A stretch of 64,000 nt of DNA from the sequence record PQ850626.1. One strand, written 5' to 3'. Both the position numbers and the translations under genes were made by a program. Below the pieces are notes generated by a model. It saw nothing but the letters and a program-made list of their open reading frames with translations, did no database searches and was not told where the DNA came from. Shown one piece after another: positions 48,477-63,931 of this stretch; positions within the stretch are counted from its first letter, which is position 1, and each line of letters begins with the position of its first letter. The stretch is from Escherichia phage SkaterBoy_Bas90.

Positions 48477-48788
48477 CTATTTAAGTTTGAGGCTAATGTT
48501 AAGGTGCATACATGCTCTGTTCTGTACAGCAGCATAACTTCTACCGAGCATGTCAGCCATTCTCTGAATAGACATGAACCCAGCATTACGGATAAGGAAC
48601 TGGTCCTCTTCTTCAGACCATTTAACTCGGATTGAAGCTCTTGATATGCCGAATTTAGTGCAAGCTGTGTTAACAGCATTCTCCGTTACATTCATAATCT
48701 GAGCTACTTCTTGAACCGAGTACTCTTTGATTAGTCTCCGAAGATTTTCAATCTGCATCGGAGTCCATATAGTTCTTCGTGCTTTCAT
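48477..48788 (-). CDS. DNA-binding protein with two HTH-like repeats (candidate transcription regulator)
   Basis: Two similar ~45-aa units (W...EVAQIMNVTENAVNTAC and WSEEEDQFL...MADMLGRSYAAVQNRAC). Confidence 0.4.
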   Translation of the reverse strand: MKARRTIWTPMQIENLRRLIKEYSVQEVAQIMNVTENAVNTACTKFGISRASIRVKWSEEEDQFLIRNAGFMSIQRMADMLGRSYAAVQNRACMHLNISLKLK

Positions 48789-57539: not shown

Positions 57540-59490
57540 AATTGTAAGGGCGCTATTGCCCCGCTCTCTATGAGCTTGTTTAAGTCACTATTAACTTAAC
57601 TATAACCACTCGTTGTTAAGTAGTTATAGGTAAGCGGGGCGGTCTTATCAGGAGTTAACCTTGCCGCCCCCTTATCCGTGATGTTTCATCTGGTATCTTT
57701 AATTAGTCGCTATAAACGAAGCCGACCTGATAGCGATGATCAATCATCACAATAAGGCAGTGCGTCCGACTCTAATTAGTTACGTTATTGTAACCGTCGG
57801 CAATATCGTTTACTTTGCTTTCGCTCTCGCCTATCCTTTTATATCAACTCTCAATCGCTAGTCATCGCCCACTACGGGATACTATTGCGAAAGAGTCATT
57901 GACCGTCTAATGTTCCGACGTTTTATATCTTTCGGCAAGTTTACTACATAAACCGACTATGTACTTTCATCATAAGATGAATCTCAAGCCGTTCACATTG
58001 TAAACGTTCACACTAAACCTTATTGTTAAATAGCAATTTGCCACTTTTTAACCACTCCCCGCCGCTCTCAATTGAGCGTTAATTCGTCGGGATTGCCTAC
58101 CCTGATTAACTTCTTTCACTGTAGCACCGTGTTAGCAATGACCGCCGCTACCCTTAACCGTGGGCGATTAGCTCAAGTCTTTGCGTGTACTCAATGAATC
58201 CGTTTATCAATGGTGACGTTTCCAGTAAGGGAATGTAAAACTGTTTACCCTGATAATTTAGGGAGTTTTACGCCGTTTTATCTGGTATGCTTTCCGATGG
58301 TTATTATCATCAAGCATATTCAACCGATATAGGAGAATGTTTAAATTATTAAAGAGCGGTAAATCTATCAGTGTGCTTTCTCACACTATGCAACTGTTAG
58401 CCGTTGTTACGCTTTTCACTGAAGCGATGATTTGCTTAGTGAGTGCTCATTATGAATCATGTTGTTTTCGCTGTCAACCGCTTTTTAATCTTTTTCGTCG
58501 TTCCCGCTATTGGGAGGATATATCAATCAGCTTTATTTGATTGAAGATTAAGCGGTGAGGCTTAACTTATGACTCATATTGTTAAAGAGCGTTTAGCCTT
58601 TTAAAGTGTCTGCTAATCACTGTCACATTGAAGGCTTACTGATTCATTAACAGGCCGCCTACACCTGAACTAATCGCTGCACTATGTGCCACCTTTCCCG
58701 CGATACGTTGATTTGGGAACTAGTTAGCGATGTTTTGCTAACTTGTGGTTAGTATGGACTACTTTAACCACGTTTGCAACTCTTTTTATCATCTTCTTTT
58801 AATTCCTTTCCCTTATCTCGCGTGAATCTATGCGAAAGGGCAAGATGATAAGTCTGATTTGTCTTTCAGGGAATCTAGTGCGCTTTCAAGCATTAATCTT
58901 TTGAAAGTATCGAACAAATAAGGCTTATTGATATTGCTTATTGTCCGCCTGCGTCACGTATGAATCAGGAATCAATTCTACCGATTAACTGAGCGCCTTA
59001 TAGTAATGACGTCGCCGCCACCCGTAAGACAAATCATATTTTTAAAGAGCGGGATTTTTTAAGTCATCGCTGACTATGCTCACTATATATCAGGCTGTTT
59101 TCGGTGTCAATACTCTTTTTAAGAATATTTTCACTTTCTAGCCTGATTTTTAAAGAGCGGGGCAAGTTTCCTTGCCTTGTATGTTTTACATCGTACCCGA
59201 TGAAATGAAGTATACATTAATCAGTGAGGGATGCAATAGGGTAAAACAAAATATTTTAAACTTTTTCACTATAGGAAGGTAAAAGAGCGGGCGAACGTGA
59301 TACATCATAGGAAAAGGCTTGTAAAGCGATAACAAGCGGCCTATAACGCATCACAATGAGCTAAAAGGGAGTAAGGTATACAATCACCTTAGAAAAGAAA
59401 AAAGCCTCATAGCGAGGCTTATAGGAAGGATTTAAAGCATCAGATAGATTATGACCATAGGCATGACTACGGCACAATACAGGAGAAAGA
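57540..59490. repeat. ~1.9 kb ORF-poor, repeat-rich region (five TTAAAGAGCG(G) direct repeats, two TTT(C/T)ATCTGGTAT repeats, several hairpins)
   Basis: Only one track ORF (67 aa) in six frames; TTAAAGAGCG copies near 58349, 58582, 59042, 59150, 59280; a - strand TAATGTATA at 59211..59219. Confidence 0.6.
59211..59219 (-). promoter_or_regulatory. TAATGTATA motif on the - strand inside the ORF-poor region
   Basis: Plus strand reads TATACATTA; would drive transcription leftwards through the repeat region. Confidence 0.35.
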
Positions 59491-60500: not shown

Positions 60501-61373
60501 TTACTTACTAGCCTTAATGCAGTTGGCTAAATTAACGTGAACGGTATAAACAGCGTTATCAGCGTTATTATAAACGGTAGTGGCGATCATCGACTCATTA
60601 ACCGGACCATAACTCACTAGATTGGTTACAGCTTTAACGTCTTCGTAACGTTGTACAGTGCCAAATGTAACCATATCCGAGTCACTATCGGTGCGCTTGA
60701 GAACTAGATCATTGTTAGGCTGATTGTCTAGTGTCTTAGACTGAAAGAGAACGCCATCATTAGTTACGTTGCTAAACTTCATTTTTAATACAATAGTATT
60801 GCCGTCACTATCCGCACCGTTGCAAATCATCCAACCTTTATTGATGGAACTAGCGAAAACATCAGCGGCATTAGTTGCAGGAGCAGGGCCAGCGATAGCC
60901 TTATCAGAAAGAGATGTGACCAGTGCACTAACACCAATAGCTGCAACCAGTGCATAACTTGCCAGATTAACAGACTTCATAATCTTACTTGCAACAGTGG
61001 GCTTGATTGGCTGTTTCTTGTTTTTCTTGTTCCATGCTTCAACCATGACAGACAAGCGGGATAATTCAGCTTTCACATCACGGCATGACTCAGGCCAATC
61101 CTTCTGATTCCAGCTATCTAAATTTGCCTGAATGTAACAGTTGATAGCGTCCTGCATATCGGTAAAACCGTTCTCTTTGAACGTGCTTTCATCTTCACAC
61201 TGTAAAGCGTTCGCAGTAGAATTGATGATTAAGCAAGCCAGCATTACAGAGTTTTTGAATCCTTTACGTGCACTTTCGTTTTCCATCCACGCATCAGGAC
61301 TACCAACAGTTAAGCCTAAAGAGGAAAGGCTTTCGTTTGCTTTATTCAAGTGGTTAATCGCTACTTTAGACAT
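60501..61373 (-). CDS. hypothetical protein with a central hydrophobic segment
   Basis: 290-aa ORF; helical N-terminal domain, SYALVAAIGVSALVTSL segment, Asn/Thr/Val-rich C-terminal domain. Confidence 0.4.
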   Translation of the reverse strand: MSKVAINHLNKANESLSSLGLTVGSPDAWMENESARKGFKNSVMLACLIINSTANALQCEDESTFKENGFTDMQDAINCYIQANLDSWNQKDWPESCRDVKAELSRLSVMVEAWNKKNKKQPIKPTVASKIMKSVNLASYALVAAIGVSALVTSLSDKAIAGPAPATNAADVFASSINKGWMICNGADSDGNTIVLKMKFSNVTNDGVLFQSKTLDNQPNNDLVLKRTDSDSDMVTFGTVQRYEDVKAVTNLVSYGPVNESMIATTVYNNADNAVYTVHVNLANCIKASK

Positions 61374-61559
61374 TTGATATTCCTTATGGTTGATGAAAAC
61401 TACAAACTACAATCGCAACTATATAATAAAGGAAAAGGCTGTCAACCGTTTATTTTCTAACTTTCTTGCATCCTACTGAAAACTAAAGGAATTTAATTTG
61501 CTAAACTTTCCATACTCAGAGAATCAGCTTACTAGATATTGTTACTTTATAACACTACG

Positions 61560-62020
61560 GGTAACAGACCAACAGACCAGGACAAACGGGGATACAACAA
61601 CCGCAGGACAGACCACGGGGAAACATGCAAGATAGTGCGGTAATAATATACCACTTAAATAATTGTATAACTCAAACATCAAAGACGTTCGCTACGCTCA
61701 CAAAGGCACGCTGAAAAAGAAAAGAATAAAAGAAATAATTAAAAGAAATACAATCATCCACTTAATTAATACATACATCATTATTGCACTCATAATAACA
61801 ACTATTGAAACTATTTACATTCAAACTATGGGGGATGGGATGGTTACTATACGGTATTATTAACCCTCTTATGGTAGTGCCTGTACTAGTTTATACAGTG
61901 CTGGCCTTTCTCTCACTCAGTAAAGGGGAACTAAATAAACGGGTAGATAATGTATTGGGTAGTATACACGGGGGAATAATTACGGGGAGTAGGCACGGGG
62001 AAAGGTGAAACGTTGAAAGG
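61560..62020. promoter_or_regulatory. divergent intergenic control region with iteron-like ACGGGGA repeats
   Basis: ACGGGGA at about 61586, 61616, 61969, 61992, 62006; CAGGACA(A/G)ACC repeats; a TAATGTATT variant at 61948..61956; lies between leftward and rightward genes. Confidence 0.45.
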
Positions 62021-62155
62021 GAAGGTAAAGGCATTGCCAATAACCCTTTTTTAAATGAGGACTCCCCCCTTTTTAGGAAACGCGCGGGAAGCGGCTAGCC
62101 CCATTCGGTCAAATCAGAATTTTAAACTCTTATATATAAGGTTGAAAGAGAACTT

Positions 62156-62320
62156 ATGTGGAAAATTAAGTTAATCATTAAGCAATTCAAATGTGATCAT
62201 GAGTACTATCGGATACGCAAAGCTTACGGGGATGAAAGAGTTCACACCCTTTATAAGTCCACTTGGAGATGTAGTAAATGTGGAAAGCTTAAACACAGCA
62301 CATGGATGGATAGGCCTTAA
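62156..62320 (+). CDS. small zinc-ribbon protein (54 aa; not in the ORF track)
   Basis: ATG at 62156 behind a GAAAGAG RBS; MWKIKLIIKQFKCDHEYY...RCSKCGK... with a C-H/C-C pattern; overlaps track ORF 62193..62498 in another frame. Confidence 0.35.
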   Translation: MWKIKLIIKQFKCDHEYYRIRKAYGDERVHTLYKSTWRCSKCGKLKHSTWMDRP

Positions 62321-62521
62321 CGTGACATGGCCTTTACGGGTATGTCTTATGATGTGCCCTTTATACTTTTATTCAGAGGATAAGAATATGAGGTTTTTAA
62401 AAGAACTACACTCCTTGATTTATAAGGACATAGTGTACTCAGTATCCCGCAATGCATGGTTCTACCAAAAAGGTGGCAACGGTGAATGGGTAGATTGAAT
62501 CTTATTCAGAGGAGATGAATT

Positions 62522-62776
62522 ATGAATTTAGTATTAGACTTTTTATCAGAGATGGTGCCTCGGTTCAGAACGGAGACATACGCTTTCGTAATCAACAGTG
62601 ACTCTGAAGAAGAGATGGAAGCTACATGCTTAGGTCGACTTGTTGACTTAGATGATGAAACAGATTTCGATATTACAATTGATGTGAGTAGCTTAGGTTG
62701 GCTCTTCTTCAGAGCATTCCGCACTTACAAAGTAGAAACATACAAAGATTACAGCAAGGGAGAGACAGATGAATAA
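62522..62776 (+). CDS. hypothetical acidic protein
   Basis: 84-aa ORF with GAGGAG RBS. Confidence 0.4.
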   Translation: MNLVLDFLSEMVPRFRTETYAFVINSDSEEEMEATCLGRLVDLDDETDFDITIDVSSLGWLFFRAFRTYKVETYKDYSKGETDE

Positions 62777-63401
62777 TTTAATCAAAGCGATGGACCTTAA
62801 CGAGTATAATTCACAGCTGTGTCGCTCTGGCTGTAGCTTACAGAATTTAGAAACTATGGGAAATGTTTCAGGACTGGCTGTACAAGATTTATATAGTGGA
62901 AGTATTCTTAAACCAACTATTACGGAGAAGAAAGATATGATGAGTTTAGTAGAACAATACCGTGGACTTCAAGTCGGTACTATTGGTGATAAATATGAGA
63001 ACTATTACAAAGATCGATCAAAAGTACTTGAAGAAGTTGCACGGGCTAAGCCTTCTACTCTGGAAGTAGTTGAATACGAATCTACTAAACATGATCACCT
63101 CCCTGACTATGCTCGTGCAATGATTGAGATGATTGAAGAAGCTGAATATGAAATGCTCCATGATTACATTACCTCCAAAGATGAATGGCATCGTGATGTT
63201 CGAATCGAAGAGGATGGTACAGAAACAATTACGTGGATTCACAAGAGTGAGCTAGTAGACGACGCACTGCGAGACTACGAAAAATTTTTGGTCGACGGCT
63301 CTATTGTTTTAGAGGAAGAGAAGGGTGCAGAACTTCCGTGGGAAGGTGAGACGATTGCTTTAGGTAAGATGTTCAACCTGTCCGTTGGTGATTGTAAGTA
63401 A
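62769..63401 (+). CDS. hypothetical protein
   Basis: 210-aa ORF overlapping the previous stop; followed by a terminator. Confidence 0.4.
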   Translation: MNNLIKAMDLNEYNSQLCRSGCSLQNLETMGNVSGLAVQDLYSGSILKPTITEKKDMMSLVEQYRGLQVGTIGDKYENYYKDRSKVLEEVARAKPSTLEVVEYESTKHDHLPDYARAMIEMIEEAEYEMLHDYITSKDEWHRDVRIEEDGTETITWIHKSELVDDALRDYEKFLVDGSIVLEEEKGAELPWEGETIALGKMFNLSVGDCK

Positions 63402-63457: not shown

Positions 63458-63931
63458 ATGTTTGGAGAAAACGGAGAACTCACGCCTGCACAGGTAGCTG
63501 AGATTACAGGAAGATTACCCGGAGTAACGGAAGAACTTGAAGGCCGTGGTATGAACCCAAGCAATGGGAAGTTTCAAAAGGGAAATAAATTCGGACGACC
63601 CAGAGGTAGTAGAGGTAAACTGACACAATTAATGTTGGACCGTGTTGCTGCAAGTCATTTGTCTCCTGATGAAGTGTTAATTCAAATTTACGAAGATCCT
63701 AATATTCCACCTGATCTTAGATTCAAGGCTGCATCAAAAGTTGCAGATCTGGTATATCCTAAGGCGGCCTCTGTTGAAGTTAAGATTGAGGAAGAGAATG
63801 TAATCAACGAAGAATCATTGAATGCACAAATCAAGGACTTCTTGACTGGAGCACTTGGTATCGACGTTATGCCTCCAGAAGAAGACAACTCTGAGGACGC
63901 TGAAAAGGGGGAGGAAGCGGACGAGAGTTAA
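63458..63931 (+). CDS. possible small terminase subunit (DNA-binding)
   Basis: N-terminal ...NGKFQKGNKFGRPRGSRGK... resembles the GN-x-NA-x-G-x-GRP motif of some small terminase families; AAGGAG RBS; acidic C-terminus; a TAATGTAGA variant about 15 nt upstream. Confidence 0.3.
   Translation: MFGENGELTPAQVAEITGRLPGVTEELEGRGMNPSNGKFQKGNKFGRPRGSRGKLTQLMLDRVAASHLSPDEVLIQIYEDPNIPPDLRFKAASKVADLVYPKAASVEVKIEEENVINEESLNAQIKDFLTGALGIDVMPPEEDNSEDAEKGEEADES

Follow-up and report, generated by a model that had tools for sequence, protein, structure and literature searches.

The 64,000-nucleotide stretch analysed here, referred to as the window, is a sequence of Escherichia phage SkaterBoy_Bas90 (PQ850626.1), a phiEco32-like (Kuravirus) phage. 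The intergenic region of interest (61374-62155) lies between the last leftward gene, 60501-61373, and the first rightward gene, 62156-62320, as the first-pass annotation of this DNA had described. The region matches approximately 96 phiEco32-like phages of E. coli and Shigella, which belong to Kuravirus and its sister genera in the subfamily Gordonclarkvirinae. The features of the region and of the nearby terminase gene are listed below, with a slash marking an edge of the direct terminal repeat (DTR).

61418..61445, minus strand: early sigma-70 promoter of the last leftward gene
61557..61563, plus strand: cluster 1 copy a, ACGGGTA; core kept in 13 close relatives
61564..61614, plus strand: companion motif of cluster 1, ACAGACC, whose copies (61564, 61572 and 61608) are interspersed among those of the cluster
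61586..61592, plus strand: cluster 1 copy b, ACGGGGA, with CAGGACAAAC directly before it
61615..61621, plus strand: cluster 1 copy c, ACGGGGA, with CAGGACAGACC directly before it
61630..61830, no strand: sequence-conserved A+T-rich block (72% A+T) between cluster 1 and the DTR
61901..61906, no strand: left DTR edge, CT/GGCC (CT/AGCC in phiEco32)
61903..62096, no strand: DTR equivalent of 194 bp, single copy in the window, by homology to the 193-bp DTR of phiEco32
61939..61945, plus strand: cluster 2 copy a, ACGGGTA; begins at position 37 of the DTR and shows no variation in 13 relatives
61968..61975, plus strand: cluster 2 copy b, ACGGGGGA, one G longer than the ACGGGGA of phiEco32
61982..61988, plus strand: cluster 2 copy c, ACGGGGA
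61995..62001, plus strand: cluster 2 copy d, ACGGGGA
62044..62074, plus strand: CCCTTTTTTAAATGAGGACTCCCCCCTTTTT, the most conserved element of the whole junction
62095..62100, no strand: right DTR edge, CT/AGCC (CT/AGGC in phiEco32)
62226..62232, plus strand: ACGGGGA within gene 1
62336..62342, plus strand: cluster 3, one copy, in the context GCCTTTACGGGTA
63458..63931, plus strand: putative small terminase subunit (TerS); in relatives, the large terminase gene follows directly after the homologue

The phiEco32 genome carries an exact 193-bp DTR, and its match to the window ends at the last base of the linear phiEco32 record. Alignment of this DTR with the window gives 177 identical positions over 195 columns. 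DTRs are also annotated in the records of YF01 and 4E8. A 193-bp repeat with blunt ends is reported for SU10 from sharp read drop-offs (PMC4281155), the ends of YF01 are reported as resolved by full-length nanopore reads, and DTRs of 192-193 bp were found by similarity in 30 phages (PMC9965538). The termini are described as experimental in phiEco32, SU10 and YF01 (PMC4281155, PMC9965538). The DTR equivalent is present only once in the window because the assembly runs through the collapsed genome ends. By homology, the window is a circularly permuted assembly across these ends, and what appears as a divergent intergenic region is the concatemer junction. The context that the first-pass annotation missed is thus that its strand-switch region is, judged from homology to the DTRs of phiEco32, YF01 and 4E8, the junction of the physical ends of two genome units, with half of the repeat copies located within the DTR. 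Both DTR edges in the window share the short sequence CT/RGCC. Each of the two edges of the phiEco32 DTR holds a CTAG that is cut in the middle, in agreement with the blunt ends that SU10 is reported to have.

A search of both strands of the 64-kb window identified five exact copies of ACGGGGA (61586, 61615, 61982, 61995 and 62226), all on the plus strand and spanning less than 650 bp, with no copy on either strand of the remaining 63 kb. The total of five is by itself unremarkable against an expectation of 2.6 per window, and the unusual feature of ACGGGGA is its clustering rather than its count. The clustered repeats described in the first-pass annotation are therefore real, and its positions 61586, 61616 and 61969 were right to within 1 nt; the remaining two (61992 and 62006) were about 10 nt away from the true positions 61982 and 61995. 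Its flanking repeat, in the form CAGGACA(A/G)AC, does precede the first two copies (at 61578 and 61604) and is confined to those two. With the relaxed form ACGGGKA, eight of the 12 copies in the window fall within 61550-62350, on one strand throughout. The broader motif A-Y-G-G-G-K-A (AYGGGKA), with an expectation of about 0.15 copies in 800 nt and a Poisson P of about 6e-12 for its clustering, gives three same-strand clusters at 61557-61621, 61939-62001 and 62336. Cluster 1 (61557, 61586 and 61615, with spacings of 29 and 29 nt) is located approximately 290-350 bp upstream of the DTR. Cluster 2 (61939, 61968, 61982 and 61995, with spacings of 29, 14 and 13 nt) lies 36-92 bp inside the left DTR edge, and the homologue of its copy at 61968 is an exact ACGGGGA in phiEco32 and most relatives. 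Cluster 3, approximately 240 bp downstream of the right DTR edge, is a single copy in the window phage versus three to five copies at the same site in relatives of the ATGGGTA class described below. Tandem Repeats Finder misses the arrays because the copies are interspersed, and an Rfam scan of 61000-62700 at E<=1 gave no match. The accessible portions of the SU10 and YF01 reports (PMC4281155, PMC9965538), which describe the DTR, the CCCTTTTTTA repeat and the conserved block, contain no mention of the ACGGGGA arrays.

The copy at 62226 differs from the others in its behaviour. ECBP2 retains ACGGGGA at the homologue of this position although its own DTR carries ATGGGTA, and since the copy is independent of the motif class of the phage, it is probably held by coding constraint and stands outside the site system. 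Gene 1, in which it lies, encodes a 54-aa protein directly beside the DTR with a C-x-H...C-x2-C pattern and a weak rubredoxin-like match. This small Cys/His protein (gp1) was rejected as a reader of the motif, as it is the same in all motif classes.

The first-pass annotation had named a lack of conservation in related phages as a finding that would count against its reading; the heptamers are found at homologous positions and on the same strand in every relative inspected. Among 13 relatives of the ACGGGGA class, motif positions are 97.5% conserved compared to 84% for the intervening and flanking positions (Mann-Whitney p=2e-5). No ORF is conserved across the arrays, where the extra G at 61968 and other indels break the frame, and because relatives differ by such frame-breaking indels the arrays are, on this comparison, non-coding. 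The small ORFs 61663-61863, 61805-62008 and 61891-62040 were likewise rejected as genes, given that the indels of the relatives are not multiples of three. ATGGGTA replaces ACGGGGA in every cluster present in SU7, Bas86, Bas88, TH42 and several metagenomic contigs, the metagenomic loci in this comparison being those that reach upstream of the DTR. A third group consisting of EP335, 4E8, Bas89 and KBNP1711 carries ACGGGGN, and ACGGGTA is found at fixed positions in both main classes. Parallel change at no fewer than eight separate sites indicates, from the sequences compared, a single sequence-specific reader. All classes infect E. coli, so this reader is probably encoded by the phage.

The arrays could instead be a functionless by-product, left where terminal DNA was locally duplicated or gene-converted, with an apparent conservation that is merely regional. 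High conservation extends to much of the non-coding DNA around them, and the arrays fade in the most distant relatives, including the 7-11-like phages; IMG/VR yielded only further distant relatives in which the arrays are faint. Regional conservation does not account for motif positions being significantly more conserved than spacers, for a strand lock maintained across lineages or for copies hundreds of bp apart shifting to the same new heptamer, and the same layout is seen in the unrelated phage T7. We regard a by-product as very improbable.

Exact metagenome matches to a 19-mer anchor were chance matches at 22 of 31 loci. In several more distant relatives (L061-L066, L071 and L073-L075), 1.7-3 kb without any called gene separates the last leftward gene from the first rightward one. 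L075 contains 12 same-strand ACGGG copies over 625 bp, eight of which are ACGGGG. The portal gene of L062 (7137-10192) is interrupted by a GIY-YIG endonuclease ORF and the large terminase gene of L075 (5240-7083) is split into two ORFs; from their sequences, both interruptions look like homing-element insertions into packaging genes.

The heptamers are accompanied by other conserved elements at the junction. The block at 62044-62074, approximately 36 nt before the right DTR edge, has a core, GAGGACTCCCC(C), that is kept even where the small terminase is only about 62-67% identical. This GAGGACTCCCC block is present wherever the family is recognisable and is far more conserved than the heptamers. 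The most conserved part of the DTR is reported to be nt ~130-170 (PMC9965538), and the CCCTTTTTTA repeat has been described as well (PMC4281155). Judged by this conservation, the GAGGACTCCCC block may be a candidate primary terminase site or cut-directing site. The conservation of the A+T-rich block at 61630-61830 lies in its sequence, beyond mere composition. The block holds ACGCTGAAAAAG at 61708, of which the CGCTGAAAAAG part is invariant, and two co-varying copies of CCACTTAA (61651-61658 and 61758-61765) located 107 nt apart. The CCACTTAA pair changes jointly: other lineages have CCAATC(T)AA or CCAGTC(T)AA in both copies.

The first-pass annotation suggested that clustered direct repeats at a strand-switch point mark a replication origin or an operator array. 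The general part of this reading stands, as the repeats are clustered, conserved and in the same orientation, which is the kind of short repeat that proteins bind; neither an origin nor an operator gains specific support. An operator role is unlikely because no copy overlaps a promoter: over 110 bp separate the nearest heptamer from the only sigma-70-type promoter near the arrays (61445..61418, minus strand). This promoter matches one listed upstream of CDS125 in SU10 (PMC4281155, S2 Table). The sequence TAATGTAT, given in the SU10 report (PMC4281155) as the core of phage-sigma (gp36) promoters, occurs at 61948-61955, within the DTR and between heptamer copies. The window contains eight copies of TAATGTAT versus 2.8 expected, and the one at 61948 is not conserved in phiEco32, which has TAATGAAT there, as does half of the relatives. 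An 18-nt repeat, TCATATTGTTAAAGAGCG, is present in five same-strand copies (58018, 58341, 58574, 59034 and 59142; window 58018-59159) within a gene-poor region of approximately 2 kb that has strong leftward sigma-70-like promoters at 59110..59082 and 58477..58449.

As a replication origin, the heptamers would serve as iterons for a phage initiator or primosome-loading protein and the A+T block as the unwinding element. The resemblance to origins such as those with lambda O-binding or plasmid Rep iterons consists of direct repeats in one orientation adjoining a conserved, A+T-rich 200-bp block (72% A+T) in a strand-switch region, a layout that suits other readings equally well. A distant relative has a comparable A-rich run ahead of an ACGGGG array. 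In T7, phiOL and phiOR are annotated beside the junction arrays, and both are associated with secondary origins. Origin iterons are usually 17-22 bp, helix-phased and located in or beside the initiator gene, unlike the 7-bp units here, which are set on a lattice of 13-15 or 29 nt. Pfam, PHROGs and NCBIfam show no Rep, DnaA or O-like domain in the flanking genes, and there is no adjacent initiator gene. The half of the copies that lies inside the DTR would be duplicated at both genome ends, and the motif type in the DTR follows the small terminase and no identifiable replication protein. The cumulative GC skew, proposed by the first-pass annotation as a check, does reach its minimum at this region, but the turn coincides with the switch in gene orientation and provides no independent information; being confounded by gene orientation, GC skew is uninformative as evidence for an origin. 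An origin at this site is in our estimate improbable. With the arrays in and beside the DTR, they most likely guide packaging, as may the heptamer arrays of T7, rather than mark an origin.

A comparable arrangement is found at the ends of T7. The heptamer CCTAAAG occurs at 17, 41 and 60 inside the 160-bp DTR of T7 (three copies), with eight copies just downstream of the DTR (175-332) and two just upstream of its right copy (39671 and 39700). None is present on the other strand of those stretches, and the spacings are multiples of approximately 13 nt. PacB and PacC are the packaging signals of T7. The T7 heptamers themselves are not known to have a proven role and are at most candidates for these signals. 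They are the 'SRL/SRR' repeats of Dunn and Studier 1983. T7 and the phiEco32-like phages share a short exact DTR (160 and 193 bp, respectively), strand-locked heptamers on a lattice of about 13 nt, three clusters located upstream of the DTR, in its left part and downstream of it, and terminase genes that adjoin the junction. They differ in the heptamer, as CCTAAAG is unrelated in sequence to that of the window, and in the position of the terminase genes, which are downstream of the junction in the window and upstream in T7. The window phage belongs to Gordonclarkvirinae and uses the host RNA polymerase with a phage sigma factor, and its TerS is PaP3/NV1-like and not gp18-like. Pausing of T7 RNA polymerase at the junction during maturation (PMC3276506) has no counterpart in the window phage. 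It is reported that gp18, the small terminase of T7, recognises PacB in the concatemer and that gp19 cuts at PacC (PMC9860248), and the packaging specificity of T7 maps to the terminal 5% of its genome (PMC3276506).

The position of several short repeats beside a terminase cut site and the terminase genes is also a feature of cos and pac sites. The lambda cosB R sites, the P1 pac hexamers and the SPP1 pacL boxes are all short repeats read by an oligomeric small terminase. Those systems produce cohesive ends or package by the headful, whereas in phiEco32-like phages two cuts 193 bp apart give rise to the DTR. The R sites of lambda are 16 bp long and in mixed orientation, in contrast to the heptamers of the window, whose binding is putative and which are all in one orientation. 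Models for small terminases have been reviewed (PMC7672466), and the TerS of PaP3 binds its site sequence-specifically.

A profile search with the product of the putative TerS gene of the window matched small terminase structures of Pseudomonas phages (7joq, E=0.005; 6w7t/PaP3, E=0.14); single-sequence searches against PDB and NCBIfam gave no match. The YF01 homologue of 63458-63931 has been assigned as TerS by HMM comparison (PMC9965538). The AlphaFold model of the protein is of low confidence, and a fold search with that model gave nothing informative. Upstream of TerS, 62769-63401 encodes an acidic 210-aa protein whose N-terminal half is swapped for unrelated sequence in ATGGGTA-class phages while its C-terminal half is conserved; PHROGs and GenBank records wrongly label this protein 'ABC transporter'.

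TerS is at least 90% identical among close relatives, yet its residues 33 and 36 follow the motif class of the DTR arrays. N33/N36 is found with ACGGGG, E33/T36 with ATGGGT, N33/T36 and D33/T36 with ACGGGT, and S33/T36 mostly with ATGGGT. In a TerS tree built without residues 30-42, the E33 and S33 forms fall in separate clades, each beside an N33 sister, and the tree contains three concordant sister contrasts between residue 33 and motif position 2. The pairing of T36 with T at motif position 6 was predicted beforehand and held for P0041 and P0061. The contigs of P0044 and P0077 are too short, and these two were left out. A residue-36/base-6 'code' was rejected because it fails in the distant P0088/L075 (T36 with eight ACGGGG) and P0101 (N36 with ACGG(A/T)A). 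The heptamer variants are thus conserved by lineage and follow the terminase module in the DTR arrays, with the rule breaking in distant relatives and cluster 1 excepted: ECBP2, L067 and L068 combine ACGGGG in cluster 1 with DTR arrays that read ATGGGT or ACGGGT.

At the junction, ECBP2 is a natural recombinant: up to approximately 130 nt short of the DTR it is almost identical to KBNP1711, and its DTR and the sequence that follows, as far as the small terminase, resemble SU7 (L026/L027 for ECBP2, L028/L029 for KBNP1711). In this phage, cluster 3, gp4, gp5 and the small terminase have stayed together with the DTR arrays as one module. With the arrays, gp4, gp5 and the small terminase all confined to 2 kb, much of the co-variation could stem from linkage. 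The E33 lineages may also be non-independent if a cassette was transferred, and the N-terminal segment of P0048 may have been gained by recombination rather than convergence.

A reader other than the terminase would be a different phage DNA-binding protein acting on the first-entering DNA, where it could protect the end, control the entry of the genome or regulate the early or gene-1 promoters at long range. The early promoter points leftward and is approximately 650 bp from the right physical end; from this placement, the right end with clusters 1 and 2 probably enters first. That the copies change in concert speaks for a reader encoded by the phage rather than by the host, as such a protein would be. 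The first-pass annotation had offered the helix-turn-helix protein 48477-48788 (minus strand) as a possible binder. It was found in the ACGGGG-type phages checked, and ATGGGTA-type phages were absent among the 60 of its 109 matches that were listed. This candidate was rejected, since its counterpart in phiEco32, a phage with identical repeats, shares only 64% identity, and no homologue was found in ATGGGTA-type phages such as ECBP2, which keep full arrays. A genome-wide presence/absence screen of the window ORFs in ECBP2 and KBNP1711 returned many candidates without singling one out. The lack of any heptamer over a promoter speaks against promoter control, and the T7 parallel together with the small terminase co-variation fits packaging better, leaving another binder unlikely in our view, though less so than an origin.

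The reading we favour is that the heptamers are recognition sites for the packaging machinery, to which we give about an even chance on the comparisons above. The arrays would be bound by this machinery in the replicative concatemer, and the likeliest binder would be the oligomeric small terminase encoded 1.4 kb downstream, with one TerS subunit per heptamer on the 13-15-nt lattice. Bound TerS would position the large terminase to cut both CT/RGCC edges, 193 bp apart, and duplication of the terminal repeat and its packaging would follow the pattern of T7. Clusters 2 and 3 would represent initiation-side sites comparable to lambda cosB or T7 PacB, and cluster 1 could be an accessory or termination-side element. 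A more specific proposal, which we hold only tentatively, is a packaging-specificity system in which each subunit of a PaP3-type TerS ring would read one A-Y-GGG-K-A through GM-x33-P-x-x36-G. Replacement of N33 by E or S would retarget the ring from ACGGG to ATGGG, giving rise to 'packaging incompatibility groups' among co-infecting Kuravirus-like phages, and the role of T7-type arrays would be accounted for.

The heptamer arrays of the window belong with the T7-type terminal heptamer arrays, and the useful addition made here is their co-variation with the small terminase. The recognition and duplication of genome ends in short-DTR phages are much less understood than cos or headful packaging. 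This family makes the question testable, as it offers natural heptamer variants, a small and highly conserved TerS with one or two co-varying residues, the recombinant ECBP2 and experimentally defined blunt ends, and swaps of sites and residues in Kuravirus-like phages could test TerS-DNA recognition directly. The repeats also mark the true genome ends in circularly permuted deposits such as the window, and knowing these ends helps the annotation and engineering of Kuravirus therapeutic phages. If the packaging-specificity proposal is true, it would be the first explanation for the purpose of the long-known T7-type terminal heptamer arrays.
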